Positions 1-18,991 of a stretch of DNA of 64,000 nucleotides are shown here, piece after piece. Source of the DNA: an uncultured Verrucomicrobiales bacterium (GTDB lineage: Bacteria; Verrucomicrobiota; Verrucomicrobiia; JADLBR01); contig CAZYWZ010000023.1 of assembly GCA_964651705.1 (NCBI GenBank), forward strand, positions 4,412-68,411. Reading direction: 5' to 3'. Position numbers and translations under genes: made by a program. The first letter of the stretch is position 1. Every line of letters begins with the position of its first letter. The notes below the pieces were generated by a model. That model searched no databases, had not been told where the DNA came from, and was given only the letters and a program-made list of their open reading frames with translations.

Positions 1-207
1 CAGCCGCACCTCCCCCACGCTAACCGCATGGATCCAGATCCCGCCCCGCGCTCTTCCGATCGCTTCCCGCGTCCGCTTCCCGAATATCCCAAACCTCTGC
101 CCGAAACCGCGGCCCGACCGACTCCGCCGCAGCATCTTGTACCCGTAGTGCGGCGCCAGGGCCAAGAAGACGAAGGGAAACAGCAGATTGTATAGGATCC
201 TGACCAT
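1..207 (-). CDS. waaA: 3-deoxy-D-manno-octulosonic acid (Kdo) transferase WaaA/KdtA, N-terminal part (partial, runs off the window start)
   Basis: Minus-strand ATG at 207 (plus-strand 'cat' 205-207). Translation MVRILYNLLFPFVFLALAPHYGYKMLRRSRSGRGFGQRFGIFGKRTREAIGRARGGIWIHAVSVGEV matches the WaaA N-terminus pattern (hydrophobic anchor, RFG, IW[IL]HA[VS]SVGE). The frame is open to position 1. Confidence 0.7.
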   Translation of the reverse strand, partial: MVRILYNLLFPFVFLALAPHYGYKMLRRSRSGRGFGQRFGIFGKRTREAIGRARGGIWIHAVSVGEVRL

Positions 208-218
208 GGCCATTGGAG

Positions 219-1166
219 TCAGCCGGCGCGGCCCGCGCGGGGATGCGCCTCACCGTGGACACGCTTCAATCTCTCGAGGGTCACGTGCGTATACACCTGC
301 GTTGTCGAAAGCGATGCGTGCCCGAGCATCTCTTGCACGCTCCTGAGGTCCGCGCCACGCTCCACCAGATGCGTCGCGAAACTGTGCCTCAATTTGTGGG
401 GGGTGAGGTTGGCATCCAGGCCGCTGAACGCCAAATACTTTTTCAGCAGTTGCCCGATGGCCGCGACGCTGAGTCGCCCCTTCCGGGCCTTGTTCAGGAA
501 TAGTGGCCCGGCACCCGGGTGACCGGATTCGCGGAGGTACCGCGCCAGGGCCTCCGACGCCGGTTCCCCGATCGGGCACAGGCGCGTCTTTCCACCCTTC
601 CCCCGAACTCGAAATATCCCCGCCCCACCGTCCCAGTCCTCGACATTCAACCCGGCCAGCTCGCTGACGCGCAATCCCGCCCCGTACGCCGTCTCCAGCA
701 ATGCCGCGTCACGATAGGCGGTCCACGCCGGCGCCTGCTTGGCCCGCGGCATCCGCATCGGCGCACCCAATAGCGCCTCCACCTGCCCCACCGTCAAAAA
801 TTTCGGCAACCTCCTCCCCAGTTTCGGCAGCGCCACTCCCTCCATAGGGTTTTCCCCGACCATCCCCTCCCGCAGCAGGAACCGGTAAAATGACCGCAGC
901 GCCGAAAGGTGCTGCCTGACATGCGAGCGCGCATATCCCCTGCGCGAGAGATCAAACAGCAGCCGCCTCACATCCTCGCGCCCGACCGACCCCCAACCCG
1001 AGCCGAAAAAATGCCCCGCCTCGCAGAGGATATCCTCATACGCCCGCAGCGTCAGAGTCGCGCGCCCGCGCACGCCACCCAGATAGTCGAGGAAGGCGCG
1101 CACCGCGGGATCGCCAACCGCGCGCTTGGCGCGACCGCGTCTTCCGGAGTCGCCCGCCCTCCTCAC
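219..1166 (-). CDS. xerC: Tyrosine site-specific recombinase XerC/XerD family
   Basis: 315-aa ORF (GTG start) ending LTPHKLRHSFATHLVERGADLRSVQEMLGHASLSTTQVYTHV, the R..H.R..Y catalytic box of tyrosine recombinases. Overlaps the topA stop by 4 nt. Lies in the dprA-topA-xerC synteny known from many bacteria. Confidence 0.85.
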   Translation of the reverse strand: MRRAGDSGRRGRAKRAVGDPAVRAFLDYLGGVRGRATLTLRAYEDILCEAGHFFGSGWGSVGREDVRRLLFDLSRRGYARSHVRQHLSALRSFYRFLLREGMVGENPMEGVALPKLGRRLPKFLTVGQVEALLGAPMRMPRAKQAPAWTAYRDAALLETAYGAGLRVSELAGLNVEDWDGGAGIFRVRGKGGKTRLCPIGEPASEALARYLRESGHPGAGPLFLNKARKGRLSVAAIGQLLKKYLAFSGLDANLTPHKLRHSFATHLVERGADLRSVQEMLGHASLSTTQVYTHVTLERLKRVHGEAHPRAGRAG

Positions 1167-3838
1167 GCCGCCCGCTTCGCCGACACCCGGGCCGCCTTCC
1201 GCCCCTTCGTCGCCCCCGCCTTGGGTGCCGCCTTCTTCCGGGCCCGTGGCTTCGTCGCCGCCTTCCGTTTTGTCGCCGGCTCCGGCGCCTTCGCCGCGGC
1301 CGGCGCCTCGGCGAGCTTGTCCCCCCCATCCCCCTCCGGCCTCTTGTACTTCGACGCCTTACCGCCCTTGCCCACGCGGGGCGGAAAACCAAAACCGATC
1401 TTCCCCTCCGGCGATAGCGCCAGCCACGCCGAGAACGGCCGCCGCGTGCGCCGCGACCAGAACTTCTCCAAAAGGTCCGTCTTGCCCTCCGCCAGGAGCT
1501 TCGCTGCCTGCTCTCGATCGATGTCTCTCCCCAGGATCTTCTTGCTGATCCGGATGGTGCACTTCGCCTCGCCTTCCGTGGCCGGGCCCACCGCCCGCTC
1601 GCAGATGAACGCCATCGGCGTCTCAAAAACCCCGCCGCCGCAAATCGGGCATTTGCCGACCGGTTCCTGCCCGGAGAAATCGGCCGGACCGCCGCCAAGG
1701 CCATCCAGATCCAGCTCCACCTTCCACTCGTCCGTCAGCCTCAGGCCCGCAGAAAATGTCTTCCCGGCCTTCGACCGGAAACCATCCAGCGGCCCCACTT
1801 TCCGCTGCGTGATGAGCTCCTCCGCCTCCTCCCGCTCCAGGCGCCGTCCCGCGATCGTCTTCCAGATCGTAAAGTTATCGTTGACCGATTTGTATGCCTT
1901 GAAGGTCTCGATCATGTCGGCCCCGTCCACCGGGCTCTTGACCGACAGCGGGCTCGCGCCCAGATCCGTCTCCTCGAAGCTCTTCGCGATGCCGACGATC
2001 TCGCGCGTCAGATCCGAGATCTCGCGCATGAATTCCGCGCGGCTCATGTGGCCGTTCTCGATCTCGCGCAGCTTGTGCTCCCACTCGCCCGTCAGCGTCG
2101 GCGAGACCAGCGCGTCCACCCCGATGGCCCGGAGCAGTTCGATGAGCGAGATCGCCTTCGACGAGGGCACCAGCTCGCGCCCCTCGCGGTGCACGTAATG
2201 CTCGTAGATCAGGCCCTCGATGATCGAGGCCCGGGTCGCCGGCGTCCCGAGGCCCCGGTCCTTCATCGCCTCGCGCAGCTCCTCATCCTCGAGCAGCTTC
2301 CCCGCGGTTTCCATCGCCGTCAGGATCGTCGCCTCGGTGTAGCGCGCCGGGGGCCTAGTCTCCAACGCCGCCACCTCGACCGCGACGGTATCTGCCCGCT
2401 CCCCGGCCGATACCGGCACCACCTTGCCCTCGCCAGCCTCGGCCTCCCGCCCGTACACCGCCAGCCAGCCGGGTTCCCGAAGGATCTTACCCTCGGTCTT
2501 GAAGGGCTCGCCCTCCACCCGGGTGATCCGCGTCGTCACCTCGAACCTCGCCGAGGGATAGAATACCGCGATGAACCGCTTCGCGATCAGGTCAAAAAGT
2601 TTCGCCTCCGCCTCGTCCAGCCTCGCGTGAATCTGCCCCGTCGGGATGATCGCAAAGTGATCCGACACCTTCGCGTTGTTGAAAATCCTGCGGTTGGATT
2701 TCACCCAGTCCGACTCGAGCGCCTTTGCCGCATGGCCCGCGAGCGGCCCGCAGCCGGGGGGCAACTCCGGCGCCTTGGCGATCGCGCCCAGCGCCTCGCG
2801 CACCACGGGAAGATAGTCCTCCGGCAGGGCCCGGGAATCGGTGCGCGGGTAGGTGATCATCTTGTGCCGCTCGTACAGGGCCTGCGCCAGCTGCAACGTC
2901 CGCCGCGCCGAAAAGCCGAACCTCCCGTTCGCCTCCCGCTGCAGCGTGGTCAGGTCGTATAGCAGCGGCGGCGCCTGCGTCGCCGGCTTGGTCTCTTCGG
3001 TGACCTCGCCCGGCCGGCCCTCGCACCGCTCCTTGATCGCTAGGGCGCGCGCCTCTTCCCAGATCCGCTCCGCCCGGAGGTCCGACTCCTCGCCGGAATC
3101 CGATGCCCCCTTCTTGAAGGCCTCGTCAAACCACTTGCCCTGGTACTGCCCCGCCGCCACCCCGAAGGTCGCCGTCACCTCCCAGTATGCCCTGGGACGG
3201 AACGCCCGTATCCGCTCCTCGCGCTCGACGAGCATCGCCAGCGTCGGTGTCTGCACCCGCCCCACCGTCGCCCGATGCGCGCTCTTCGAACCGTAGATCC
3301 TGCGCGTGAAGGCCCGCGTCCCGTTGATGCCGATCAGCCAGTCCGACTCGCTCCGGCAGGTCGCGGCATCCGCGAGGTTATCCAGCTCGTCGCCATCCCG
3401 CAGATGGCCAAAGCCGTCCCGGATCGCCGCCGGCGTCATCGACGAGAGCCAGAGCCGCCGCACGCGCTTCTTTACCCCGGCCAGCCGGAGGATGTAGCGG
3501 AAGATCAGCTCTCCCTCCCGCCCCGCGTCGCACGCGTTCACGATCTGCCCGACGTCCTTCCGCTTCATGAGACGCACCAGCAGCTCGTAGCGCTCCTGCC
3601 CCTTTTCGGTCGGCTGAAGCCGAAACTCCTCCGGGATGATCGGCAGCGCCTCCAGCGTCCAGAAACGCCACTTCTTGTCCAGCTGGTCCGGCTTGCAGAG
3701 TTCCACCAGATGGCCGATGGCCGAACTGATCACGTACTCGTCACTCTCGAAATGATCCCCTTTTCGCCCCACCTTGCCCAGCGCGCGCGCGATGTCCGAC
3801 GCCACGCTCGGCTTCTCTGCAATAACCAACGTCTTCAT
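1163..3838 (-). CDS. topA: DNA topoisomerase I (type IA) with a C-terminal Zn-ribbon region and a lysine-rich tail
   Basis: 891 aa. N-terminal TOPRIM MKTLVIAEKPSVASDIARALGKV...ISSAIGHLVEL. Cys pairs KCPICGGGVFETPMAFICERA in the C-terminal part. Terminal KKAAPKAGATKGRKAARVSAKRAA basic tail. Confidence 0.9.
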   Translation of the reverse strand: MKTLVIAEKPSVASDIARALGKVGRKGDHFESDEYVISSAIGHLVELCKPDQLDKKWRFWTLEALPIIPEEFRLQPTEKGQERYELLVRLMKRKDVGQIVNACDAGREGELIFRYILRLAGVKKRVRRLWLSSMTPAAIRDGFGHLRDGDELDNLADAATCRSESDWLIGINGTRAFTRRIYGSKSAHRATVGRVQTPTLAMLVEREERIRAFRPRAYWEVTATFGVAAGQYQGKWFDEAFKKGASDSGEESDLRAERIWEEARALAIKERCEGRPGEVTEETKPATQAPPLLYDLTTLQREANGRFGFSARRTLQLAQALYERHKMITYPRTDSRALPEDYLPVVREALGAIAKAPELPPGCGPLAGHAAKALESDWVKSNRRIFNNAKVSDHFAIIPTGQIHARLDEAEAKLFDLIAKRFIAVFYPSARFEVTTRITRVEGEPFKTEGKILREPGWLAVYGREAEAGEGKVVPVSAGERADTVAVEVAALETRPPARYTEATILTAMETAGKLLEDEELREAMKDRGLGTPATRASIIEGLIYEHYVHREGRELVPSSKAISLIELLRAIGVDALVSPTLTGEWEHKLREIENGHMSRAEFMREISDLTREIVGIAKSFEETDLGASPLSVKSPVDGADMIETFKAYKSVNDNFTIWKTIAGRRLEREEAEELITQRKVGPLDGFRSKAGKTFSAGLRLTDEWKVELDLDGLGGGPADFSGQEPVGKCPICGGGVFETPMAFICERAVGPATEGEAKCTIRISKKILGRDIDREQAAKLLAEGKTDLLEKFWSRRTRRPFSAWLALSPEGKIGFGFPPRVGKGGKASKYKRPEGDGGDKLAEAPAAAKAPEPATKRKAATKPRARKKAAPKAGATKGRKAARVSAKRAA

Positions 3839-3887
3839 ATTATAAATCTGTGCCGAGGTCCCACCCGCGCCGCACTCGCCCGGCCCT

Positions 3888-5000
3888 TCAATTCAGCCGA
3901 ACGAAGTACTTGCCAGGGAGCGGGCGCACGAGGCGCCGAAGCTCAAGTTGCAGCAAGCTAGAGGACACCTTGGCGGGCGGCAACCCGCAAATTCGAATGA
4001 TCTCATCGATGTGGCGCTCGTCGGAACCCAGCGCGTCCAATATCGCAATTTCCTCGCCCCCAGGAGCTTCTGCCGCCAGCGGGCCCGCGCCATCCGCCTT
4101 CGGTGGCGCCACCTTCCCGATGCCGGGCACCAGGAACTCGAACTCGGCCAGCACATCCTCGGCGCCCTCCACGAGCCGCGCGCCGTCCTTGATCAGCTGG
4201 TGGCAACCCCGCGAATGCGGCGTGTCCACCCTGCCCGGCACAGCGAAAACCTGCCTCCCCTGATCCAGCGCCATGCGCGCCGTGATCAGGGCCCCGCTGC
4301 TCTTCGGCGCCTCCACCACCAGCACCCCCAATGACAATCCCGCCACGACGCGATTCCGGATCGGAAAGGTCTGCTTGTCCGGCTCCGTCCCGAGCGGAAA
4401 CTCGGAGACCAGCGCTCCCGACTCCGCCACCCGATCCGCCAGCAATCGATTCTCTGGCGGATAGACGCGATCGATGGCAGACCCAAGCACCGCGATGGTC
4501 CTCCCCTTGGCCGCGATCGCACCCTCGTGCGCGTGGGTGTCCACCCCGCGCGCCAGACCGCTGATCACCGTCATCCCCGCATAGGCCAACTGGAAACCCA
4601 GGCGCCGCGACATCTCGCGCCCATAATACGAGGTCTGCCTCGATCCCACCACCGCCACACCGCGCCGATCCCTTGCCTCGAACCCACCCCGCACGTAGAG
4701 GGCCAGCGGCGGATCGTAGATGTTTCTGAGATTCTCCGGATATTCCGCGTCCGCAGGCGTCAGCAGCCGGACCCCCAACGCCTTCGCCCGCGATAGCTCC
4801 GAGGCCAGATCCGCGTGCGATTCCCAGCCCGCGATCACCGAGGCCACGTCCTCCCCGATGCCCTCCACCCGCGCCAGCCTGCCACGGCTGCACCCCAGCG
4901 CGGCGGCCGCGCCCCCCAGCGCCTCCACCAGTCGCCGCACGCGCCCCGGCCCCACCTTCGGGAGCATGTTCAATGCCACGTACGCCTCGGATTCCGTCAT
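3888..5000 (-). CDS. dprA: DNA processing protein DprA (Smf)
   Basis: Rossmann-like DprA core GVDTHAHEGAIAAKGRTIAVLGSAIDRVYPPENRLLADRVAESGALVSEFPLGTEPDKQTFPIRNRVVAGLSLGVLVVEAPKSSGALITARMALDQGRQVFAVPG. Start set at the internal Met (MTESEAYVALNMLPKVGPGRV, a typical DprA N-terminus). The ORF stays open upstream to 5231 (GTG). Confidence 0.85.
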   Translation of the reverse strand: MTESEAYVALNMLPKVGPGRVRRLVEALGGAAAALGCSRGRLARVEGIGEDVASVIAGWESHADLASELSRAKALGVRLLTPADAEYPENLRNIYDPPLALYVRGGFEARDRRGVAVVGSRQTSYYGREMSRRLGFQLAYAGMTVISGLARGVDTHAHEGAIAAKGRTIAVLGSAIDRVYPPENRLLADRVAESGALVSEFPLGTEPDKQTFPIRNRVVAGLSLGVLVVEAPKSSGALITARMALDQGRQVFAVPGRVDTPHSRGCHQLIKDGARLVEGAEDVLAEFEFLVPGIGKVAPPKADGAGPLAAEAPGGEEIAILDALGSDERHIDEIIRICGLPPAKVSSSLLQLELRRLVRPLPGKYFVRLN

Positions 5001-5283
5001 GAACCGACCAGTTTCCAAGACCCCGGTCAAAATGTCCAGACCATGCCGCCGGCCTTGTGGCTGGCCCCCGGATCCGGGCGTGAGGGTCCCGCGAATGATG
5101 GCCAACTCTTTTGGAGTGCGGCGTCGGAGCGCCGCTTTGGATTGCCCCGCACGTCCCGGCGTGCGCTCGCCGACTCCTTCGCCGGACGACGCAGGACCGA
5201 CCCTTACGCGATGATTTCGATTGCCCGGCACCCATCACCACGCACCATGAATCGCACGGGTCCAAACGCATGACACCCAACAC

Positions 5284-6837
5284 ATGAAAACCCTCTCGGC
5301 CCTCATCTGCGCCTCCGCCCTCCTCCCCCTCGTCGCCACCGGCGCGCCGCACGAGAGTCGCCCCCGGCCCAACGTGCTCTTCATCGCCATCGACGACCAG
5401 AACGACTGGATCGGCCACCTCGGCGGTCACCCGCTCGCGAAGACCCCGAACATCGACCGCCTCGCGGCGCGCGGCACGGCATTCCTCAACGCGCACGTGC
5501 AAAGCCCCCTCTGCAATCCCTGCCGCACCAGCCTCCTGCTCGGCCTCCGGCCCACGACGACCGGCATCTATGGCCTCGCCCCCTGGTTTCGCACCGTCCC
5601 GAAATGGCGGGATCGCGTCACCCTCCCGCAGCATTTTGCCGCACAGGGCTACCGGACGCTCGCCACAGGAAAAATCTACCACGGTGGCGCCGGGGGCGGG
5701 GGCGGGGGCGGCGCCGGCAAGGCCAAGCGCAAAACTCAGGGCAAGGCCCCGGACCACGGGGCCCAGGATCCACCGGAATTTCAGGTCACGGGCAAGGCCG
5801 GTGGCCTCGGCGCCAAACCCGAAAAGAAACTCATCCCGCCGACCCCGATGGGCAACCATCCGCTCATGGACTGGGGAGTCTTCCCGCACCGCGACGAGGA
5901 CAAGGGCGACTATCAGGTCGCGAGTTGGACCATCGAGCAGATCCAGAACGCGCCCAAGGATCGCCCCTTCTTCCTGGCGGCCGGTTTCTTCCTCCCGCAC
6001 GTGCCCTGCTACGCCACGCAGAAATGGTTCGATCTCTACCCCGACGACGACAGCGTGCTCCCCATCGTCAAGGCAGACGACCGCGACGACACGCCGCGCT
6101 TCTCCTGGTACCTCCACTGGGAACTGCCCGAGCCCCGGCTGAGATGGGTGACGGAAAACAACCAGTGGCGCAACCTGGTCCGGAGCTACCTCGCCTGCAC
6201 CAGCTTCGTGGACGCGCAGGTCGGGCGCATCCTCGACGCCCTCGACGCGGCCGGCCTCGCGGAGAACACGATCGTCGTCCTATGGGGCGACCACGGATGG
6301 CATCTGGGCGAAAAGGGCATCACGGGGAAAAACACCCTCTGGGACGATGGCACCCGCGTGCCCCTCGTCTTCGCCGGCCCCGGCGTGAAACCGGGCCAGC
6401 GGTGTTCCCGTCCCGCCGAATTGCTCGACATCTATCCGACGCTCATCGGCCTCTGCGGCCTCCCCGCGCGCGACGACCTCGAGGGCATCAGCCTCCTACC
6501 CCAGCTCGAAGACGCCACCGCGATGCGCGAGCGCCCCGCCATCACCAGCCACAACCAGGGGAACCACGGGATCCGCAGCGAGCGCTGGCGATACATTCGC
6601 TACGCCGACGGCAGCGAGGAACTCTACGACATGCACGCCGATCCGAACGAGTGGAACAACCTCGCCGGACAGGCCAAGTACGCCGACGTCATCGCCGAAC
6701 ACAGGCGCTGGCTGCCGAAGATCGACGAGCCCCCCGCCCCGGGCAGCGCCTCGCGCGTCCTGACGTACGATAAAGCCACCGACACCGCCATCTGGGAGGG
6801 CAAGACCGTCAGACGCAACGACCCCATCCCGGAATGA
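5284..6837 (+). CDS. Sulfatase (formylglycine-dependent, Cys-type) with an internal Gly/Lys-rich insert
   Basis: Signal peptide MKTLSALICASALLPLVATGA. NVLFIAIDDQ metal-binding start. Motif LCNPCRTSLLLG (C-x-P-x-R). Insert HGGAGGGGGGGAGKAKRKTQGKAP. Confidence 0.85.
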   Translation: MKTLSALICASALLPLVATGAPHESRPRPNVLFIAIDDQNDWIGHLGGHPLAKTPNIDRLAARGTAFLNAHVQSPLCNPCRTSLLLGLRPTTTGIYGLAPWFRTVPKWRDRVTLPQHFAAQGYRTLATGKIYHGGAGGGGGGGAGKAKRKTQGKAPDHGAQDPPEFQVTGKAGGLGAKPEKKLIPPTPMGNHPLMDWGVFPHRDEDKGDYQVASWTIEQIQNAPKDRPFFLAAGFFLPHVPCYATQKWFDLYPDDDSVLPIVKADDRDDTPRFSWYLHWELPEPRLRWVTENNQWRNLVRSYLACTSFVDAQVGRILDALDAAGLAENTIVVLWGDHGWHLGEKGITGKNTLWDDGTRVPLVFAGPGVKPGQRCSRPAELLDIYPTLIGLCGLPARDDLEGISLLPQLEDATAMRERPAITSHNQGNHGIRSERWRYIRYADGSEELYDMHADPNEWNNLAGQAKYADVIAEHRRWLPKIDEPPAPGSASRVLTYDKATDTAIWEGKTVRRNDPIPE

Positions 6838-10721: not shown

Positions 10722-12536
10722 ATGCTCGGTGGAGGGACGAAGGCCGTGAGACAGATCCTCCCAATCGTCGCGGCCATGCCGCTGGCGCCGCTGGCCGCGC
10801 TGCACGCCGCGGATGCGCCTGCCGCGAAGCCCAACATCCTGATCGTCCTGACGGACGACCAGGGATACGGGGATTTTTCCTTCTCGGGCAACCCGAGGCT
10901 GAAGACGCCCCATCTCGATCGCCTTCACGAGCGCAGCATCCGATTGACCGACTTTCATGTCGCGCCGATGTGTACGCCGACCCGAAGCCAGCTCATGACC
11001 GGAGTCGACGCGGCGCGCAACGGGGCGTTCATGGCATGCTCCGGATACTCCTCGATCCGCCCGGGCATCCCGACCCTGCCCGAGATCCTCCGCGCGAACG
11101 GCTACCGGACCGGCCTCTTCGGAAAATGGCACCTTGGCGACAACGCGCCGCACCGCCCGATGGACAGGGGCTTCGACCACGCGGTGTGGCACAAGGGGTG
11201 GGGCATCTCGTCGGTGCCCGATCGATGGAACAACGACTATTTTGACGACACGTACTGGGTCAATGACGAGACGAAGGCCTTTCGAGGATACTGCACGGAT
11301 ATCTGGTTTGACGAGGCGATGGCCTGGATGGGCGCATGCGGACGGGACCGCGCGCCGTTCTTCGCCTACCTGTCGCTCAACGCCCCTCACGGCCCACTGT
11401 TTGTCGCGGACAACTACCGGCAGCCCTATGCCGACCTCCCCCGCCCGCTGGCCACCTTCTTCGGCATGATCGCCAACATCGACGAGAACATGGGGCGGCT
11501 GGAGGACATGTTGGAGCGGTCCGGGCTGGACGACAACACCATCCTGATCTTCATGACCGACAACGGCGGGACGGTCGGCGTGCGGTTCTACAACGCGGGC
11601 ATGCGGGGCGGGAAGATGAGCCTGTACGACGGGGGCCACCGGGTGCCGTGCCTAATCCGCTGGCCGGCCGGGAACCTCGCGCCGCCGGGGGATCGCGGGG
11701 GATTGACGCTGGTTCAGGACATCGCGCCCACCCTGTTCGATTTTTGCGGCATCGGGGCGCGGCCCGACGTGGACGGCATCAGTCTCGCGGCGCTGCTCCG
11801 GGGGCGGGCGCTTCCCGCGTTGGAGTCGAGGATCGCGGTCGTTCAATACGGAAATCAGCCATGGCACTCGCTGGAACTTCCCGTCCGGCACGATGCCTGT
11901 GTGATGTGGCGGTCGTGGCGGCTGGTCAAGGGCGAGGAGCTGTACGACATCGCCTCCGATCCGTCCCAGAAGCGGGACGTCGCGGCGGACCATCCGCCCA
12001 TCGTCGATCGAATGCGCGCGCACTACGAAACGTGGTGGAGTCAGGTCGAGCCTCGAGTCTACGGGCCGGCGATTCCGATCGGGATCGGCTGCGGTCGCGA
12101 GAGGGAAACCCTGCTGACGTCCCACGACTGGATGACGCTGAACACCGCCAACCAGAGCAACGTGCGGGAGGGCGCCAACCGATCGGGCGCTTGGGCCGTC
12201 GAGGCGGCGCGGGCCGGAACCTACACGTTCCGGTTGTACCGATGGCCGAAGGAATCCGGATTGGCCATGCGCGAGGCGGCCCCGGAGTATCTGGGCGTCG
12301 ACGGCGTTTTTCCCGCGGGCGCAGCGCTGCCAATCCGCCGCGCGAATCTAAGGATCGACGCGCAGGAATACACCGCGGAAGTCCGGGAAGGCGATGTGTT
12401 CGCCGAATTCGCCGTGCCGCTCCCCGCGGCACCCGTCGTGGTCCAGACCGCGCTCTACGACGACAGGCGGAACCGGCTCTGCGGGGCATATTACGTCTCG
12501 GTCGAAGGACCCCGGCCGACTGGGGGCCACGACTGA
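10722..12536 (+). CDS. Sulfatase (Cys-type)
   Basis: Signal peptide. NILIVLTDDQGYGD. Motif APMCTPTRSQLMTG. GKWHLG. Confidence 0.85.
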   Translation: MLGGGTKAVRQILPIVAAMPLAPLAALHAADAPAAKPNILIVLTDDQGYGDFSFSGNPRLKTPHLDRLHERSIRLTDFHVAPMCTPTRSQLMTGVDAARNGAFMACSGYSSIRPGIPTLPEILRANGYRTGLFGKWHLGDNAPHRPMDRGFDHAVWHKGWGISSVPDRWNNDYFDDTYWVNDETKAFRGYCTDIWFDEAMAWMGACGRDRAPFFAYLSLNAPHGPLFVADNYRQPYADLPRPLATFFGMIANIDENMGRLEDMLERSGLDDNTILIFMTDNGGTVGVRFYNAGMRGGKMSLYDGGHRVPCLIRWPAGNLAPPGDRGGLTLVQDIAPTLFDFCGIGARPDVDGISLAALLRGRALPALESRIAVVQYGNQPWHSLELPVRHDACVMWRSWRLVKGEELYDIASDPSQKRDVAADHPPIVDRMRAHYETWWSQVEPRVYGPAIPIGIGCGRERETLLTSHDWMTLNTANQSNVREGANRSGAWAVEAARAGTYTFRLYRWPKESGLAMREAAPEYLGVDGVFPAGAALPIRRANLRIDAQEYTAEVREGDVFAEFAVPLPAAPVVVQTALYDDRRNRLCGAYYVSVEGPRPTGGHD

Positions 12537-12661
12537 ATGACAGGCCGCCCGAACGACCCAGGGCGAGTTCAAGCAGGACGGGGATGAGAACGTTTCGCGC
12601 CTGCCCGCAAACCCAAGAGAACCCGGCGTTCCCGACAACACCCTCATCATCCATACACGAG

Positions 12662-14167
12662 ATGAACCACGCCTATGGTAGTCCCGAAAACGCCGACATC
12701 GCGCTGGAGTTGCTGGATGCCCCGCATTACACCGGCAACGATCTCGTGGCGCTGATCAACGGCACCGGCCACAAAGTCACGATCACAAAACCCGACGGCA
12801 AACCGCTCGCGGCAGACTTGAAGATCGTCTGCGGCCAGACCCACCGCGCTGACGCGGAGGACGTTGGCAAGACCTTTGCAAAAGGGATCGGCCTCAAACA
12901 GATCTTCTCAATTCTTGCCACGCTGACCGTCCTACAAGCCGCTGCCCTCGAGCCACCGCAGTGGGACATTGCCATGCTTTCTAAACCACCGTCGGCAGTC
13001 GAGGCGCAGGAAGGCAAGGTTGAAGGCTTGCAGTCTCTCTTCCTCGACGGCCTACCCTACAAGGGACGGCCAACAAAGTTCTATGCGTATCTGGGATTTC
13101 CCACCAACGCGACCGGCAAGGTGCCGGCCGTAGTGCTTGTTCACGGCGGCGGCGGCACGGCGACTGCGCCATGGGCGAAGTATTGGGTCGCGAAAGGCTA
13201 CGCCGCACTTTCGCTCGACACCGAGGGCCATCTGCCGGTGAAAGCCTGCGACCGGAAACCCGGTGATCCCGGCTGGAAGACGATGGACAGTCTGGGTCAG
13301 CCGTGGGGTGGGCAACCGCGGCGGCCGAAAGGCTTTGCCGATCCCGCTTTACCACCGGAGGAACAATGGCTGTATCACGCTGTGGCGGACTCGATCTTGT
13401 CCATCTCATTTCTAACGTCACGCCCTGAAGTGGACGCAAACCGCATCGGGATCGTTGGCATCTCGATGGGGTCGGTTGTGTGCAGCATCGTGGGCGGTCT
13501 CGACCAGCGGTTGGCCTTTGTCGTTCCGCAATACATCGGCGGCAACAACGATCTCGGCAACGTCTGGTATGCCATTATCAAAGAGCACCCCGACGTCATG
13601 CGCTTGGACCCCGCGAACTTCTACCGCCAGCCCAAAGGCAAAGCGCACTGGCTCTGGATCAACGGCGACAACGACAAATACGGCCTGCCGCCCATGACCA
13701 CGAAATCCTGGCGCGAAACGGGCCCAAACTCATGGATGACGCTTCTTCCGACACAAGGCCACGGCGGCGCCTTCGGCGAGACCGGCCCGAACGCCCTGCG
13801 CGAAATCTACGCCTTTGCCGACAGTGTCACGCGCGGCATTCCGCCGTTGGCGCGCATCCTCAGCACGGCGCGTGTGAACAACTCTGTCACGCTGATCTGG
13901 CGTGAAGCCACACCCGTGACGCGATCTCAGATCATCCACACAACCGAGGCGATCCCTACTGTAGCGATCAGCGGCGACATCCGCAAAGATTGGCCGACGG
14001 TGAACTGGCACATGCAGGACATGCCGCTGCCAAAAGTGATCAGGCTGCCCGACGGCGGGCTGCGAGCCGACTTCCCATTGCCCGCTGGCGTGAAAGCCGC
14101 CTACATCAACCTGATTGATAAGCGAGGCCTTGCCGTGTCGAGCGATTTCCTTTTCGTCCAGCCCTAA
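12662..14167 (+). CDS. Alpha/beta-hydrolase esterase (acetyl-xylan-esterase / dienelactone-hydrolase-like)
   Basis: GxSxG nucleophile elbow GISMGSV. Putative Asp in NGDNDKYG and His in TQGHGG. VVLVHGGGG oxyanion region. Lower GC than the surroundings. The track ORF 11336..14167 extends upstream through a region that overlaps the preceding sulfatase; start taken at the first in-frame ATG after that gene. Confidence 0.5.
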   Translation: MNHAYGSPENADIALELLDAPHYTGNDLVALINGTGHKVTITKPDGKPLAADLKIVCGQTHRADAEDVGKTFAKGIGLKQIFSILATLTVLQAAALEPPQWDIAMLSKPPSAVEAQEGKVEGLQSLFLDGLPYKGRPTKFYAYLGFPTNATGKVPAVVLVHGGGGTATAPWAKYWVAKGYAALSLDTEGHLPVKACDRKPGDPGWKTMDSLGQPWGGQPRRPKGFADPALPPEEQWLYHAVADSILSISFLTSRPEVDANRIGIVGISMGSVVCSIVGGLDQRLAFVVPQYIGGNNDLGNVWYAIIKEHPDVMRLDPANFYRQPKGKAHWLWINGDNDKYGLPPMTTKSWRETGPNSWMTLLPTQGHGGAFGETGPNALREIYAFADSVTRGIPPLARILSTARVNNSVTLIWREATPVTRSQIIHTTEAIPTVAISGDIRKDWPTVNWHMQDMPLPKVIRLPDGGLRADFPLPAGVKAAYINLIDKRGLAVSSDFLFVQP

Positions 14168-14182
14168 TCCACGTTACCACTA

Positions 14183-14479
14183 ATGGAATACACAATCCTT
14201 ACCGTCCTTACCGCTTTGCTGCTTGCGCCGCTGGCGATGACAATTCCGCTTTACGGCATAAGCGCAAAGGAGATCATGTATGCATCCGGCGTTGCGGGCG
14301 GACTGGCTATTCAATTTTCCTTCCGCAACGACACCCTCACCGCCGAACTGCTGGCGAATGATCGCTATGTTGTCAAGGGGCTGGAAGCGGAAAGAAAATG
14401 CAAGAGGATGCAGGAAATGCCGGAGCAAGACCAGTCCTTCAATGCAGCGGAAAAGGTAAGTCGCGAGAGTGACGTATGA
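14183..14479 (+). CDS. Small hypothetical protein (98 aa) with an N-terminal hydrophobic segment
   Basis: ORF in the low-GC island (MEYTILTVLTALLLAPLAMTIPLYG...). Its last codons plus stop are part of the 27-bp repeat shared with 16341-16367. Confidence 0.35.
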   Translation: MEYTILTVLTALLLAPLAMTIPLYGISAKEIMYASGVAGGLAIQFSFRNDTLTAELLANDRYVVKGLEAERKCKRMQEMPEQDQSFNAAEKVSRESDV

Positions 14480-16311
14480 TGACAAGAGCAGTGCGGTGTT
14501 TTTGTATGTTGGCATTGGTGGGGCATGCCTCCGGCGGCACGTATCATGTGGCCAAGGATGGCTCCGACAGCAACGATGGATCCGTCAGAAAACCCTTTTT
14601 TACGATCCAGCGGGCGGCGGATGTTGCGCAGCCGGGGGACACCATCATCGTCCATGAAGGGGTGTACCGCGAGCGGGTCAACCCGCCGCGCGGGGGGACA
14701 TCCGATGAGCGGCGCATCACCTATCAGGCTGCGCCTGGCAAAAAGGTGGTGATCACCGGTGCCGAAGTGGTCACCGGCTGGGAAAAGGTGCAGCACGACA
14801 CCTGGAAGGTGACGCTTCCCAACCGCCTTTTCGGTGACTTTAATCCGTTTGCCGATCTGATTCAGGGTGCTTGGTTCGATCGCAAGGGCAGGGATCACCA
14901 CACCGGCGCGGTCTATTTGAACGGGCATTGGCTGACCGAAGCGGCTGGTTTAAGTGAGGTCATGCCGTCTGCCGGGACAGCACCGCTCTGGTTCGGACAG
15001 GTGGATGAGCAGAACACCACCATCCACGCCCAGTTTCCGGGGGTTGATCCGAATAAGGAATTGGCGGAAGTCAATGCGCGCCAAACCGTATTTTATCCGG
15101 ATCAGCCGGGCCGTAACTATATTACGGTGCGCGGGTTTACACTGACTCAGGCGGCCACGCCGTGGGCGCCTCCGACGACCGAACAGATCGGCCTGATTGG
15201 AACGCACTGGAGTAAAGGATGGATTATCGAGGACAACACCATCAGTTATTCGACCTGCTCCGGAATGACCTTGGGGGCTAAGAATATGGGGAAGTATGCC
15301 GGGACCGCTCTCGGATACATAGAACAGATCCAATATGCGACTACGGATGAGGGGGGGTGGACCCGGGATAATATCGGCCATCACATCGTCCGCAGAAACA
15401 AGATTATTCATTGCGAAATGGCGGGCATTCACGGCAGTATGGGCGGGGCCTTCAGTCTGATTGAAAACAATGAGATCTCCTATATCTGGGTCCGTCGACA
15501 GTTTAGTGGTATGGAGCAGGGAGGGATCAAACTGCTCGGCGGGGTGGATTCGGTGATTCGCAACAATTTGGTTCATAACACAAGGCACGGAATTTGGCTG
15601 GATTGGATGGGGCAGGGCTCGGAGGTCAGCGGGAATGTGTGCTTCGCCAATGATTCCGACCTATATCTCGAGGTTAACCACGGGCCGGTGTTGGTTGCGA
15701 ATAATATATTTTTGTCGCCTATCGCGCACAAGAGTATATCACGGGGAACGGCATATGCGCACAACCTGTTTGCCGGACGTTTCTTCGTGACGGATACGGC
15801 GCGGAAGACCCCGTATCTCAAACCCCATTCGACGAGTGTGGCGGGATATCATGCCAATGCTCCGGGGGATGACCATTTTTATAACAACCTCTATTTTGTA
15901 AACTCTCCAGTAATTAAAACCTTTTACGTATTTCGCGAATATATTGATCCTGAACTTCCGGTGACAATGCGGGATAATCTCTACATGGGGGTGTTGCCTC
16001 ATCCCGATGACGTCAGTCCGATGGTGCAAACCAAAGAGGTCCCCATTTTGAAACCGGTGCAGAAGGCGGACGGAATCTATATTGAATGGGCCAGCCGTGC
16101 TGAATGGACGAACACGACCCGTCAGGTCGTGACCTCCGACCTGCTCGGCCGTGCCGGCGTGTCCGGTGCGCGTTATGAGCAACCGGACGGATCACCGATT
16201 CGGGTGAACCGCGATTATTTTGGACACCCGCGCAACGAAAAGAATCCGCTGCCGGGTCCGTTCGAACTGCCGCCGGGCAAGGTGCTGCTGAAAATCTGGC
16301 CCAAAGAGTGA
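14476..16311 (+). CDS. Right-handed parallel beta-helix repeat protein (pectate-lyase-fold; candidate polysaccharide lyase/hydrolase)
   Basis: Signal peptide MMTRAVRCFCMLALVGHASG. N-terminus GTYHVAKDGSDSNDGSVRKPFFTIQRAADVAQPGDTIIVHEGVYRE typical of beta-helix (DUF1565/pectin-lyase-fold) proteins. Repeated NN-[IV]..N motifs. Confidence 0.55.
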   Translation: MMTRAVRCFCMLALVGHASGGTYHVAKDGSDSNDGSVRKPFFTIQRAADVAQPGDTIIVHEGVYRERVNPPRGGTSDERRITYQAAPGKKVVITGAEVVTGWEKVQHDTWKVTLPNRLFGDFNPFADLIQGAWFDRKGRDHHTGAVYLNGHWLTEAAGLSEVMPSAGTAPLWFGQVDEQNTTIHAQFPGVDPNKELAEVNARQTVFYPDQPGRNYITVRGFTLTQAATPWAPPTTEQIGLIGTHWSKGWIIEDNTISYSTCSGMTLGAKNMGKYAGTALGYIEQIQYATTDEGGWTRDNIGHHIVRRNKIIHCEMAGIHGSMGGAFSLIENNEISYIWVRRQFSGMEQGGIKLLGGVDSVIRNNLVHNTRHGIWLDWMGQGSEVSGNVCFANDSDLYLEVNHGPVLVANNIFLSPIAHKSISRGTAYAHNLFAGRFFVTDTARKTPYLKPHSTSVAGYHANAPGDDHFYNNLYFVNSPVIKTFYVFREYIDPELPVTMRDNLYMGVLPHPDDVSPMVQTKEVPILKPVQKADGIYIEWASRAEWTNTTRQVVTSDLLGRAGVSGARYEQPDGSPIRVNRDYFGHPRNEKNPLPGPFELPPGKVLLKIWPKE

Positions 16312-16405
16312 CGAATTCTCAGAGGCAATACGTTAATCCAGAGAGTGATCTATGATGACAAGAGCAGGCTGGATAAGATCGGGTAGGCTTTTTTGGAGAT
16401 TTCAC

Positions 16406-18991
16406 ATGGACCTCACCCTACTCGCCGCCCTGCTGCTCACGACGCTCCCGGCGCTGGGTACCGCCGACGCGGCAATCTCGCCGACCAAACCCAACATCGT
16501 TTTCATCTTCGCCGATGATTGGGGCTGGGGGGATTTGGGCTGCCACGGGCATCCTTGGCTGAAGACGCCGCACCTTGACCAGCTTGCCAGCGAGGGCACC
16601 GACTTCCATCAGTTTAACGTACTCAACCCCGTCTGCTCGCCGAGCCGGGCTGCGGTGATTACGGGCCAATACCCGGCGCGTCGCTGCATCCACCAGCACT
16701 TCGCCGCACCGGCATCCAACGCCCAGCGAGGCATGCCGGACTGGCTCGACCCGAAGGCGCCTTCGTTGCCGCGTTTCCTGAAGCAGCTCGGCTATCGCAC
16801 CGCGCACTTTGGCAAATGGCACCTCACCAACCGTGAGACCCACGGCGCGCCCACGCCGGACGCTTATGGATACGACGAGGCCAAGGTCTTCAACGGCGGT
16901 GCCGACTGGCCATCGGCTGATGCGCACGCGGCCGGTGATGACGCTGTCGCGTTCATCAAGGCGAACGCCGGAAAGCCATTCTTTGTCAACGTGTGGATTC
17001 ACGAAAGCCATACGCCGCATGTGCCGACGAAGCCGTCCATGCAACGGTGGCAACATCTCGACGAGCAAAAGCAGGTCTATGCCGCCGTCATCACCGATGG
17101 GGACAACGCGGTTGGGAATATTCTCGCGGCGTTGAAGGATGCGGGTGTGGAGAACAACACGATCGTCATGTTCTCCAGTGACAACGGTCCGGAGGGGACC
17201 GGCAAAAACAGAAACTTCGGCGCGAAGGACGCCCACACCAACTCGCAAGGCTACGACACCTATTACAGCGTCGGCTCCACCGGCGGCCTGCGCGGTCGCA
17301 AGCGCAGCCTTTTCGAGGGCGGCGTGCGTGTCCCGTTCATCGTGCGCTGGCCCGGCCACGCGCCGGTTGGAGCGCGGAACGACACGACGGTATTCACGGC
17401 GGTGGATCTGCTGCCGACTCTCTGCGCCGCGGCGGGTGTTACTCTGCCCGCTGACTACCAAGGAGACGGCGAGAACCTGCTCGATGCTTTTGAGGGCAAG
17501 GCCATCACTCGCAATCGTCCCATCTTCTGGGAATGGCAGGGCAACAATGCCGAGCCTGATTGGTGGCCGCGCCTCGCCGTGCGCGAGGGCGATTGGAAAC
17601 TCGCGCTTACCCATGACGCAAAACGCGTGGAGTTGCACCGCCTCACCGACGACCGCGCCGAGGCCGCCGACGTGGCCAAGGAACATCCCGACGTTGTCGC
17701 GCGCCTGACCAGGCTCGCGCTCGATTGGAAATCGACCTTGCCGGAAAAGCCCGACCCCGCCTGCATCGCGCCGATGGCCGCGCGGCACCCCACCGATCCC
17801 ACGCAAACATTGCGGGGGCCCGTATTCCGGTGGGACACCGTTCCGGTTTTCGCCCACTGCGGCAAACCGGACGGGCCGTTCACCGACGAGGAGGCGAAGG
17901 CACTCTCGCGGTTCGCCTACGTTGGGCTGGAGAAGATTCAGGAGATGAAGCTCCGCAAGCCGGCGTTTGAGACCATGCGAGCCGCGGCACTGGCGATCAA
18001 GGCGCACAACCCGAGGACCTTTGTGGCCGCCTACTGGAACACGTGCTTGGAGGATTGCGCCAAATTGCACGGGGAAGGCTATGACCAGTTTCTCAGGCAC
18101 CGCGAAGCGTGGCGACTCCTTGGCAAACACGGTAAACCGGTATTTGTGCGCGATGCCGCCGTGTTCGACCTGACGAAGACGGAGGTGCAGGCCTGGTGGC
18201 TGGAGCGCGCGCGCAAGATCGCGTCGGAACCCGCATTTGATGCCATCTTTCTCGACGCCGCCACGCGGGCGCATTGGCTGGTTTCACAGTGCGGCCAGGA
18301 GCGGGCAGACGCATACGATCAGGCCATGCGGCAGTTGCTCGGCACACTGAACCGCTCCACGGAGAAGCCGCTCATCTATAACGGCATCAATGTCCGCATG
18401 GCGCTCTGGGCGGATGGCGGCAGCCGGTATCTGGACTGGACCGACGGCGCGATGGTGGAGCATTTCCTCGGCCACAGCCAACGCGACGATGACGGCACCT
18501 TGCGAAGCGATGAGTTGGTGAAGACTTTCCAGCGCGTTCGCGACCTCAGCCGCACGGGCAAGATCATTCTCGTGAGATCTTGGCCCAAGACGCACGCCGT
18601 GTGGGGCAAGCGCCCTGAAGATCAACTCTGGATGAACGAGCCGACAGCTTCGGCGAAGGGTACGTCCGCCGGGAGGCTTCCGCCCCAGCTCACGACACCC
18701 CGCGCCGGGAAACTGCGGGAGATCCTTCGCGACGAGCTCGAGTTCTGCCTGGCCTGTTTTCTGATCTGTGCCGGCGAGAACTGCTACTTCAATTATTCCT
18801 GGGGCTACGGCGAGTGGGACTGGGGAACCTCCGGCAACTTCGACTGGTATCCGGAGTTTGACCGTCCGCTCGGCCCGCCCAAGGGCGAGTTCAAGCATGA
18901 CGGCATGATCTTCACGCGCGAGTTCGCCCATGCCGCGGTGCGCGTGGACCTGGAAAATGAACAAGCGCTGATCGATTGGAAGCAGCCATGA
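16406..18991 (+). CDS. Bifunctional-looking fusion: N-terminal Cys-type sulfatase domain + C-terminal (about 400 aa) putative glycoside-hydrolase-like TIM-barrel domain
   Basis: Signal peptide MDLTLLAALLLTTLPALGTADA. NIVFIFADDWGWGDLG. Motif NPVCSPSRAAVITG. C-terminal part (FAYVGLEKIQEMK...AAYWNTCLED...DAIFLDAA...LIYNGINV...ILVRSWPK...YFNYSWGYGEWDWG) is unlike sulfatase C-termini and resembles GH114/GHL-type domains (inference). The track start 16352 (MMTRAG...) lies inside a duplicated junction, so the Met at 16406 is preferred. Confidence 0.7.
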   Translation: MDLTLLAALLLTTLPALGTADAAISPTKPNIVFIFADDWGWGDLGCHGHPWLKTPHLDQLASEGTDFHQFNVLNPVCSPSRAAVITGQYPARRCIHQHFAAPASNAQRGMPDWLDPKAPSLPRFLKQLGYRTAHFGKWHLTNRETHGAPTPDAYGYDEAKVFNGGADWPSADAHAAGDDAVAFIKANAGKPFFVNVWIHESHTPHVPTKPSMQRWQHLDEQKQVYAAVITDGDNAVGNILAALKDAGVENNTIVMFSSDNGPEGTGKNRNFGAKDAHTNSQGYDTYYSVGSTGGLRGRKRSLFEGGVRVPFIVRWPGHAPVGARNDTTVFTAVDLLPTLCAAAGVTLPADYQGDGENLLDAFEGKAITRNRPIFWEWQGNNAEPDWWPRLAVREGDWKLALTHDAKRVELHRLTDDRAEAADVAKEHPDVVARLTRLALDWKSTLPEKPDPACIAPMAARHPTDPTQTLRGPVFRWDTVPVFAHCGKPDGPFTDEEAKALSRFAYVGLEKIQEMKLRKPAFETMRAAALAIKAHNPRTFVAAYWNTCLEDCAKLHGEGYDQFLRHREAWRLLGKHGKPVFVRDAAVFDLTKTEVQAWWLERARKIASEPAFDAIFLDAATRAHWLVSQCGQERADAYDQAMRQLLGTLNRSTEKPLIYNGINVRMALWADGGSRYLDWTDGAMVEHFLGHSQRDDDGTLRSDELVKTFQRVRDLSRTGKIILVRSWPKTHAVWGKRPEDQLWMNEPTASAKGTSAGRLPPQLTTPRAGKLREILRDELEFCLACFLICAGENCYFNYSWGYGEWDWGTSGNFDWYPEFDRPLGPPKGEFKHDGMIFTREFAHAAVRVDLENEQALIDWKQP

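Follow-up and report, generated by a model that had tools for sequence, protein, structure and literature searches.

Genes and features of the locus

The locus lies in a 64-kb window, the whole stretch of DNA analysed, within a gene cluster that holds at least 15 sulfatase genes. At its centre stands a gene for a predicted beta-helix glycoside hydrolase, with one copy of a 27-bp direct repeat at its start and a second copy shortly past its end. The features needed for the argument are these:

12898 to 14167, + strand: acetyl-xylan-esterase-family (AXE1) gene, the syntenic anchor for the comparison of loci
14183 to 14479, + strand: small ORF, a putative chimeric pseudogene remnant in three parts, delimited by homology breaks and protein search
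14465 to 14491, + strand: repeat copy 1, native translation-initiation region, with GAGAG (Shine-Dalgarno-like), a spacer, ATG ATG and codons 3–5 (MMTRA)
14476 to 16311, + strand: predicted GH120-like right-handed beta-helix glycoside hydrolase gene, 611 aa, assigned from Pfam matches and orthologues
16305 to 16313, + strand: third, partial copy of the left part of the repeat, AGAGTGACG, overlapping the GH120 stop codon
16312 to 16334, + strand: 23-nt spacer from the GH120 stop to the relic, candidate remnant of a 3' untranslated region
16335 to 16372, + strand: repeat copy 2, a putative 38-nt relic of the GH120 5' end, with the leader AATCCA, a Shine-Dalgarno-like element, ATG ATG and codons 3–7 (MMTRAGW)
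16373 to 16417, + strand: 45-nt junction segment between the relic and the sulfatase homology, with GGAG at 16395–16398, 7 nt before the ATG at 16406
16352 to 18991, + strand: chimeric sulfatase-GHL15 gene, its ORF open from the ATG of the relic; gene callers chose 16406

The repeat

Copy 1 of the repeat, GAGAGTGACGTATGATGACAAGAGCAG, occupies 14465–14491 and the 27-mer core of copy 2, GAGAGTGATCTATGATGACAAGAGCAG, occupies 16341–16367, both directly oriented on the + strand. The copies are identical at 25 of 27 positions and start 1876 bp apart, and the direct repeat with two mismatches described in the initial annotation is thus borne out at these coordinates. Equally sound were its observations that copy 1 spans the stop codon of the 98-codon small ORF and the ATG of the beta-helix gene, as the ORF positions confirm, and that copy 2 supplies an identical MMTRA start to the next ORF (16352–18991), in the form of an in-frame ATG ATG ACA AGA GCA. 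Contrary to what had been supposed, the repeats do not bracket the gene exactly: copy 1 belongs to it, comprising the ribosome-binding site and first five codons, while the core of copy 2 begins 29 nt 3' of the GH120 stop codon.

Shuffled controls gave a 27-mer match in 0 of 100 shuffles, and the local alignment of the two copy regions scores 44 against 14.6 ± 2.2 for shuffles, none of 1000 scoring as high. No further match with three or fewer mismatches occurs in the 64-kb window, and a scan of 185,579 species genomes (the source genome not among them) with GTGANNTATGATGACAAGAGCAG returned 0 matches. Across all 746 kb of fetched loci the best match outside GH120 starts is 17–21 of 27 positions. 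The 21/27 match, a 15-mer in L061, was rejected as a chance in-frame coding sequence (HDDKS) of an unrelated gene. The motif is not generic.

The edges of the repeat are not sharp at 27 bp, weak similarity between the copies extending over 41 nt at 80%. Just upstream of the core their identity is 8/14, and the local alignment there is not significant. The apparent 27-bp edges are the outcome of slower change in the initiation region together with point changes beside copy 1, and are not recombination break points. As for the third, partial copy, the window reads ..K E at the GH120 stop where L006 and L007 read ..K N, and six of the nine bases of AGAGTGACG are already common to the AAATTAACG of the orthologues; the significance of this partial copy is uncertain.

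The GH120-like gene and its own start region

The product of the beta-helix gene is a predicted GH120-like glycoside hydrolase, matching PF21258 (GH120 insertion domain) at 5.2e-26 and 91.9 bits against a cut-off of 27, with further matches to PF13229 (1.7e-8) and PF07602. Its homologues number thousands, and the orthologues examined share 82–87% protein identity and 81–89% DNA identity with it. The low-GC island reported at the outset is real: GC is 0.55 in the gene and 0.53 in 14236–14466, against about 0.65 in the window. The gene is, by composition, foreign to this genome and horizontally acquired, because its GC3 of 0.65 equals that of the orthologues (on contigs of 56–59% GC) and lies below the 0.78–0.86 of the host sulfatase genes. 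Each of five assemblies, made from as many sequencing runs and 100% identical, carries the gene; such a comparison, relevant to the excision proposed in the initial annotation, does not reveal rare deletion variants.

Three related loci, L006, L007 and L008, carry orthologues in differing contexts, behind a LacI-type regulator gene in L006 and L007 and behind a sulfatase fragment in L008. BLAST homology of the window to all three begins at 14467, inside copy 1, and ends just past the stop codon, the last position being 16313 against L006 and 16305 against L007; L008, the one close relative, ends inside the GH120 gene. All three orthologues carry the 27-mer, matching copy 1 at 22–23 of 27 positions, and L007 and L008 are themselves 25/27 identical over it. 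The consensus start of the three, AATCCAAGGAG(A/T)GAC(N)TATGATGAC, encodes MMT[RG][AS]GW. By these comparisons the 27-mer is native to the GH120-like gene, comprising its ribosome-binding site, the ATG ATG and the initial codons, and travels with it.

Loci that resemble an empty site point the same way. The AXE1 gene has DNA identity of 91.5% to L008, 91.7% to L012, 85% to L013/L014 and 83% to the Akkermansiaceae MAG L096, the one useful relative from a scan of species genomes with the esterase protein, in which the downstream context differs. L013 and L014 have the esterase gene, 15 nt and then an intact 489-aa sulfatase gene, and no 27-mer-like sequence is found in these two loci. Of this resident sulfatase gene the window keeps the first ~18 codons and L008 ~95; the gain of the GH120 gene also removed about 1.4 kb of it.

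The second copy

Copy 2 resembles the orthologous starts over a longer stretch than it resembles copy 1. With 16335–16372 as the query, BLAST aligns L008 (its positions 1975–2012) at 84%, L007 at 82% and L006 at 79%, the 38-nt alignments having E values of 1e-5 to 5e-3, while copy 1 aligns over 27 nt only. Upstream of the core, the AATCCA of copy 2 agrees at six of six positions with all three orthologues and at three of six with copy 1. Codons 6–7 of copy 2 are Gly-Trp (GGCTGG), as in the orthologues, where copy 1 has Val-Arg. Because it keeps orthologue-like flanking bases that copy 1 has lost, copy 2 is most directly read as a relic of the GH120 5' end and not as a copied target. The relic sits 23 nt past the GH120 stop codon in the same (+) orientation and is in frame with the downstream sulfatase-GHL15 gene.

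Over a 39-nt stretch, copy 1 and copy 2 are identical at 30 positions, copy 2 and L008 at 32, and copy 1 and L008 at 29. Both copies have derived bases in common, namely GAGAG (AGGAG in the orthologues) and AAGA (AGGA in L007 and L008). A sister relationship of the copies rests on these 2–3 shared positions, and gene conversion could fit them equally. Neutral identity, at four-fold sites, between the host and the orthologue organisms is 0.77–0.84, which matches the divergence of the copies. With a divergence between the copies about equal to that between orthologues, the event is not especially recent. The 'recent rearrangement' of the initial annotation thus stands as a rearrangement and not as a recent one (30/39 between the copies, 32/39 from copy 2 to an orthologue).

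The 23-nt spacer may be a remnant of the 3' untranslated region of the GH120 gene. Its sequence GGCAATACGT marginally matches GGCAATCCGT, a 10-mer, in the 3' flank of L006, with 29 of 1000 shuffles as good. No similarity was found between the spacer and the intergenic region of L007 (893 of 1000 shuffles as good), and no convincing homology between the spacer and the sequence upstream of copy 1.

Chimeric neighbours

The gene downstream of the relic is itself a composite. Its sulfatase part, 16418–17779, has 93.5% DNA identity to a sulfatase-EF-hand gene (L009/L010), and its GHL15 part, from ~17768, has 88% identity to L008. The two are fused at ~17767/17768, within the GHL15 signal peptide. 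Translation from 16352 would give an N-region with four Arg, and translation from 16406 one that begins M-D and is without Lys or Arg. The homologues inspected that have an unambiguous start carry Lys or Arg ahead of the hydrophobic core. The ATG of the relic at 16352 is a candidate for the real start of the sulfatase-GHL15 gene, and as such would provide an arginine-rich signal-peptide N-region. Compared with the L009 sulfatase 5' region, the GH120 genes and the L007 GH2 gene, the 45-nt junction segment gave no significant match. A 9-mer, ATGACAAGA, was considered as crossover microhomology and rejected, GH120 homology in the window running 11 nt past it.

The small ORF upstream of copy 1 is no less mixed. 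In relatives the esterase gene is followed by a sulfatase gene, and positions 14183–14235 correspond to its signal-peptide start, the homology ending at 14235 for L008 and at 14208 for L013. The filler that follows (14236–14466, 231 nt) was identified by exhaustive protein search alone, against 1.8 billion representatives. Among these the only full-length match to the small ORF is itself, together with 18 weak matches (E 1e-5 to 1e-3), mostly short proteins, several of them with a Pfam methyltransferase domain. From ~14237 to 14407 the filler reads as what is left of the N-terminal part of a secreted class-I methyltransferase-like domain, decayed so that the motif GCGDG is now SFRND. Comparison of the filler with the L008 sulfatase fragment, the intact L013 sulfatase and the L006 and L007 upstream regions gave chance-level scores.

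The esterase gene at this locus has lost its start codon. Counts from scans for promoters and terminators did not exceed chance, and the scans placed no terminator between the genes. Taken together, the homology breaks describe a locus pieced together from gene fragments, with at least five junctions, in a heavily reshuffled sulfatase cluster.

Origin of the second copy

The preferred reading, with a probability of roughly 0.6, is that copy 2 is what a deletion of the gene body has left of a second GH120 gene, in tandem with the first. Both 27-mers would derive from the translation-initiation region of a GH120-like gene gained by horizontal transfer, whose working start is copy 1. The second copy would have stood in tandem, either duplicated in place or inherited with the acquired gene, until a deletion removed its body and left the last 38 nt. 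That deletion would have joined the ribosome-binding site and seven codons of the second copy, via the 45 nt, in frame to the next gene, in which a sulfatase and a GHL15 domain have themselves recently been fused. In this order of events, duplication would come first and deletion second. Duplication in place predicts homology upstream of the two copies, except where a later replacement has affected the copy 1 side, and the methyltransferase-like filler suggests such a replacement.

The alignment of 38 nt to three orthologous 5' ends, on the + strand and 23 nt past the stop, argues for a relic, and intact tandem GH120 arrays in related loci argue for its descent from a tandem duplicate. L041 has three adjacent homologues and L065 two, distant ones at 47–51% identity, and in both the 5' end of one GH120 copy is repeated directly past its stop codon. 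The metagenome scan with the GH120 protein, which returned distant homologues only (57% identity or less) and was of no help for close synteny, served to show such arrays. L008 offers a like architecture in another gene: immediately past the 3' end of a GHL15 gene stands a GHL15 5' fragment that is cut short. None of the recovered loci has this esterase gene followed by two complete GH120 copies.

The relic could instead be the 5' end of a different gene of the donor operon that had a GH120-like start, was transferred along with the GH120 gene and was cut after codon 7, in which case the repeat was inherited; this we consider unlikely. Its model is L007, where GH120 is followed by a GH2 gene that L006 lacks and that starts 33 nt past the GH120 stop with a GH120-like ribosome-binding site and signal peptide. 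The GH120-like 5' end of this GH2 gene extends over 61 nt (a score equalled by 0 of 1000 shuffles), with the Trp codon 7 in register; the two starts lie 1881 bp apart there and 1876 bp apart here, and the relic and the L008 gene cassette begin at the same base, the A of AATCCA. Copy 2 is nevertheless much nearer to true GH120 starts (30–32 of 39) than to the L007 GH2 start (25 of 39), and is no nearer to the latter than any GH120 start is (26–27 of 39). The 23 intergenic nucleotides are unlike those of L007, by the shuffle count given above, and the derived bases common to the two copies would need an added gene conversion.

The same GH2 gene and the sulfatase-GHL15 chimera of the window are the two candidate cases for a broader idea, which seems to us quite unlikely, that the GH120 start region is a reusable 'leader module' repeatedly copied before whatever gene lies downstream.

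Very unlikely is an origin with no second gene copy, in which the sulfatase's own 5' end was GH120-like by chance (M-x-T-R) and received a short patch of gene conversion from copy 1. The 5' region of L009, the closest sulfatase homologue, does have ATGGATGACAAGAAC followed by ATGAACACCCGA (MNTRS) and has the 9-mer ATGACAAGA in common with the repeat, and the copies are directly oriented and 1.9 kb apart. The 9-mer, however, is in another reading frame and at another distance from the signal peptide, and the similarity of 16374–16417 to the L009 5' region is not significant (192 of 1000 shuffles as good). The present copy 1, moreover, is without the AATCCA and GGCTGG of copy 2 and therefore was not the donor of those bases.

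The initial annotation had proposed a target-site-like duplication, and that the 27-mer is a target or attachment site duplicated by an inserting mobile segment of 1.9 kb (transposon-, integron-cassette- or integrase-like) is extremely improbable: direct repeats do bracket one low-GC gene that is foreign by composition, but the repeat belongs to that gene in the three other contexts of L006, L007 and L008, is absent from the empty-site-like loci (the intact sulfatase site of L013/L014 having no copy where a single one had been foreseen), falls inside the homology block 14467–16313 as copy 1 and outside it as the copy 2 core from 16341, far exceeds at 27 bp the usual length of target-site duplications, and came with the loss of ~1.4 kb of resident sulfatase gene. 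Target-site duplications are usually far shorter than this, those of insertion sequences and transposons measuring 2–15 bp. No terminal inverted repeats were found at the segment ends and no attC-like hairpin at its boundaries, where single-strand folds of both strands are no stabler than shuffled sequence (z +0.5 to +1.8), and neither a transposase nor an integrase turned up in the 24 scanned ORFs of the window, a set that does not exhaustively cover small ORFs.

Comparison with known systems

Tandem duplication followed by a deletion that fuses the 5' end of the duplicate to a neighbouring gene ('start capture', yielding a chimeric gene) is a known bacterial route. The locus resembles it closely in form: the second copy is direct and lies just past the stop, nothing but the ribosome-binding site and first codons is left, the next gene is joined to them in frame, and relatives have tandem arrays of the gene family. 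It differs in that no two-copy intermediate was found in the recovered loci of the lineage, that 45 extra nucleotides stand at the junction and that use of the start is putative.

The likeness to target-site duplications of insertion sequences and transposons ends with direct repeats on both sides of a foreign gene. Here the repeat lies within the gene, is missing from the empty site and is 27–38 bp long; terminal inverted repeats and a transposase are lacking, and a deletion went with the insertion. Integron cassettes and attL-attR pairs share with the locus a promoterless single-gene unit, beginning at AATCCA in L008 and in the relic, and a sequence repeated at its ends, but not the protein N-terminus that this repeat encodes, nor do the window's boundaries and scanned ORFs show an attC-like hairpin or an integrase. 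With short-homology recombination in Verrucomicrobiota polysaccharide-utilisation clusters the locus has in common a foreign gene that replaced part of a resident gene, a sulfatase cluster and gene fragments at junctions, with nothing unusual about it. A literature search found nothing specific to this type of locus. On the sequence comparisons, the locus is an ordinary rearrangement scar, a well-resolved example of its kind, and bears no insertion footprint.

Implications

The main value of the analysis is a correction, because the comparison with relatives shows that direct repeats resembling those of a mobile element are the gene's own start region, duplicated. The current understanding of recombination is unchanged by the locus. 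What it does show is the remodelling of a polysaccharide-degradation cluster, in which most of a resident sulfatase gene gave way to one acquired horizontally, an in-frame fusion united a sulfatase with a GHL15 domain, the start codon of an esterase gene was lost and at least three other genes left fragments. If the leader-module idea were true, newly joined genes would gain a translation start and a charged secretion-signal N-region, and the copying would be a recurrent route for plugging genes into Verrucomicrobiota polysaccharide-degradation operons and not a passive scar. If the ATG of the relic is a real start, start capture would have supplied a chimeric secreted enzyme with a translation signal and with the charged portion of the signal peptide.

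The repeats and the gene they flank

The two 27-mers lie where the initial annotation placed them, 1876 bp apart, and are identical at 25 of 27 positions, with both mismatches in the spacer directly before the ATG. Their regions give a local alignment score of 44, against 14.6 ± 2.2 for shuffles. A third copy is absent from the 64-kb window at up to three mismatches, and shuffled sequences gave no matches either. As first described, copy 1 takes in the stop codon of a 98-codon ORF together with the beginning of the beta-helix gene, and copy 2 supplies the in-frame ATG of the next ORF. The low-GC island is real too: GC is lower across 14000-16400.

14183-14479: 98-codon ORF, annotated as a gene in every assembly
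14465-14491: copy 1, GAGAGTGACGTATGATGACAAGAGCAG
14476-16311: GH120-like beta-helix gene (PF21258, 5e-26)
16341-16367: copy 2, GAGAGTGATCTATGATGACAAGAGCAG, same strand as copy 1
16352-18991: ORF in frame with the ATG of copy 2
16418-18991: sulfatase-GHL15 fusion gene

An AXE1-family esterase gene lies upstream of the GH120 gene and the fusion gene downstream. The gene and both repeats are also present in all of five contigs, from five public sequencing runs, that match the window at 100% identity over 9-17 kb. The window is chromosomal, with about 65% GC, and encodes topA, dprA, a PEP-CTERM protein, DUF1501/PSD1/PSCyt2 proteins, a GH85 enzyme and at least 15 Pfam-confirmed sulfatases; no species genome closer than an Akkermansiaceae MAG was found. 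Two other tracts are repetitive. At 45267-46655, a 907-aa protein ending in a PEP-CTERM motif (− strand ORF 44144-46867) contains some 8-9 tandem 156-nt (52-codon) repeats that are 60-86% identical. The tract at 56000-59000 has an unusual composition (GC 0.71-0.73, AT skew near −0.5) and many 261-294-nt repeats; it falls towards the N-terminus of a PSCyt2/PSD1 (DUF1549/DUF1553) protein of 1664 aa (− strand ORF 54497-59491).

Table. GH120 orthologues of the window gene: locus, protein identity, DNA identity
L006, 82%, 84%
L007, 77%, 81%
L008, 87%, 89% (contig stops inside the gene)

The 5' ends of these orthologues read AATCCAAGGAG(A/T)GAC(N)TATGATGAC and encode MMT[RG][AS]GW; copy 1 matches each start at 22-23 of 27 positions. 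Window DNA homology to all three begins at 14467 and ends a few bases from the stop codon. Upstream of the orthologue lie a LacI-type regulator gene and promoter region in L006 and L007, and a sulfatase fragment in L008. Because the orthologues share the 27-mer start despite different neighbours, the 27-mer moves with the gene. In this GH120 clade it is made up of the Shine-Dalgarno-like element, the spacer, the start codons and the opening codons. GC3 of the gene is 0.65 in the window and the same in L006-L008, against 0.78-0.86 for host sulfatase genes, a composition that supports a foreign origin.

A partial third copy, AGAGTGACG, equal to the first nine bases after copy 1's G, lies over the GH120 stop codon at 16305-16313. 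The last codon and stop read GAG TGA in the window versus AAT TAA in L006 and L007, three changes, all to G; the partial copy carries no argument, since the 3' ends of the orthologues already contain six of the nine bases.

Copy 2 as a probable relic of a GH120 start

When 16312-16417 was compared with all loci recovered, the match to copy 1 was exactly 27 nt, and that to the orthologue 5' ends was 38 nt (16335-16372), with identities of 84% (L008), 82% (L007) and 79% (L006). Copy 2 shares AATCCA, the six bases before the core, with each of the three orthologues, whereas copy 1 keeps three of the six. After the core, copy 2 and the orthologues read GGC TGG (Gly-Trp), and copy 1 reads GTG CGG (Val-Arg). 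The longer orthologue match, AATCCA and Gly-Trp therefore mark copy 2 as the relic of a GH120 5' end. Copy 2 keeps ancestral bases since altered in the working copy 1, and the 27-bp limits of the repeat are not break points. Both copies have GAGAG where the orthologues have AGGAG, and AAGA where L007 and L008 have AGGA. These shared bases suggest that the two copies stem from one source in this lineage, or that they underwent gene conversion.

Over 39 nt, copy 1 and copy 2 are identical at 30 positions, copy 2 and L008 at 32, and copy 1 and L008 at 29. These roughly star-like values lie close to the identity that window and L008 show at four-fold sites, 0.77 in GH120 and 0.84 in the esterase, so the relic is of about the same age as the divergence from the L008 lineage. 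The rearrangement had been taken as recent, which is not borne out: 25/27 reflects a slowly changing initiation region and is also the identity of L007 and L008 over the 27-mer.

Origin of the duplicated start

The duplicated start most likely arose by tandem duplication, then deletion, in a horizontally remodelled cluster of sulfatases and glycoside hydrolases. The 5' end of each GH120 homologue was compared with the 300 nt past its own stop codon at 60 loci, and four exceeded a cross-locus null: L065, L041, the window and L007. L065 and L041 hold two complete (2460-5500) and three (12-5641) tandem GH120-like genes, all distant homologues, the ribosome-binding site and signal peptide of each copy being repeated in its neighbour; tandem duplication is thus documented for this family. 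In the simplest account, a second GH120 copy would have stood in tandem with the first and lost its body to a deletion that spared the ribosome-binding site and seven codons. GH120 homology ends at 16372 and homology to the sulfatase-EF-hand gene of L009/L010 begins at 16418; the exact deletion end cannot be mapped, because the 45 nt between have no significant match among the compared sequences. L009 carries the closest sulfatase homologue, and positions 2015-2032, in the 5' region of that gene, contain ATGGATGACAAGAAC, which has the 9-mer ATGACAAGA in common with the repeat (chance expectation roughly 1%); the 9-mer lies in another reading frame and was rejected as the crossover point.

Two other loci bear comparison. 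L008 1-386 holds the 3' end of a GHL15 gene and, directly after it, a truncated GHL15 5' fragment of about 90 codons, with a GTG start that overlaps the stop codon before it: a gene followed by a relic of its own 5' end, as for GH120 in the window. L012, an esterase-gene relative, shares with L008 only the last ~70 nt before the esterase gene. In L007, a 1559-aa GH2 gene (11882-16561) lies next to GH120, without a counterpart in the otherwise syntenic L006 (2179-2269). Its first 61 nt of similarity cover a ribosome-binding site and signal peptide like those of GH120 (none of 1000 shuffles scored as high), and it resembles the preceding GH120 gene over about 17 first codons, with Trp at codon 7 in register and an identical 15-mer, TGGTTTTTTTGTTTT.

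The repeats had also been proposed as a substrate for excision or duplication. Deletion between them would put the sulfatase-GHL15 gene, intact and in frame, behind the start of GH120. No uninterrupted identical stretch between them exceeds 17 nt, a length that at best just reaches the minimum usual for RecA-dependent recombination, and none of the five assemblies, in which rare variants would be invisible, carries the deletion.

Target-site duplication by insertion is not supported. In the empty-site-like relatives L013 and L014, the esterase is 81% (protein) and 85% (DNA) identical to that of the window, and an intact sulfatase gene encoding 489 aa begins after a spacer of 15 nt. The window retains this spacer and about the first 18 sulfatase codons (14183-14235); L008 retains about 95, already degenerate, and its GH120 unit then begins exactly at AATCCA. 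These remnants indicate that a foreign gene replaced most of the resident sulfatase gene, an event that predates the split of the window and L008 lineages. No 27-mer-like sequence occurs outside GH120 starts in L013, L014 or the rest of the 746 kb of compared loci; a 21/27 match in L061 was rejected as a chance coding match. The 27-mer belongs to the gene, and its absence from empty-site-like loci takes away what defines a target-site duplication. Inverted repeats and stable hairpins were sought and not found, nor was a transposase or integrase among the window ORFs scanned. A generic start context fails because the 23-mer core has no exact match in 185,579 species (one genome each). What stands of the initial annotation is a rearrangement record in the form of a duplicated gene start.

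Mosaic neighbours

The 98-codon ORF is a chimera in which the sulfatase signal peptide (14183-14235) precedes a fragment that most resembles the N-terminal end of secreted class-I methyltransferase-like domains; in this fragment GCGDG, the SAM-binding motif, has decayed to SFRND. Among 1.8 billion representative proteins the ORF's only full-length or strong match is itself, and it is not an independent gene. The sulfatase-GHL15 gene is a recent in-frame chimera with a junction near 17767/17768. Its 16418-17779 part has 93.5% DNA identity to the L009/L010 gene, and the relatives of this part have a C-terminal EF-hand domain. From about 17768 it is 88% identical to the L008 GHL15 gene, joined mid signal peptide (TGCATC/GCGCCG). 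Other sulfatase-GHL15 fusions (P0141, P0172) are only 47-49% identical. In the esterase gene, the ATG used in L008 and L012 is now CTC (12893-12895), and the ORF runs upstream into an unrelated 77-codon extension (12662-12897), making the former signal peptide internal. This may be either a new N-terminus or a gene heading to decay.

Possible role of the relic

The ORF is open from the relic ATG at 16352, and a start there would place MMTRAGWIRSGRLFWRFH, an arginine-rich N-region typical of secretion signals, ahead of the hydrophobic core LTLLAALLLTTLPAL. The gene caller chose 16406, with GGAG 7 nt upstream and a product beginning M-D-L-T, without a basic residue. Homologues with an unambiguous start (P0122, P0123, P0141, P0172) have Lys or Arg before the core, as does P0121 (Arg) if it starts at Met-17. 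These features are no more than suggestive of the relic ATG as the start of the sulfatase-GHL15 gene. A function is not required, because neutral decay since the split would leave the same conservation.

P0025 (1004 aa) is a single protein with GHL15 at its N-terminus and, at its C-terminus, a GH120-like domain 62% identical to the window GH120. This fusion suggests that the two activities work together, as does their adjacency in the window. It seems unlikely that the GH120 start region has served time and again as a leader for genes newly joined to it, a reading with two cases. The locus is a further example of an already known kind of event, and some novelty would lie only in leader reuse, if true.
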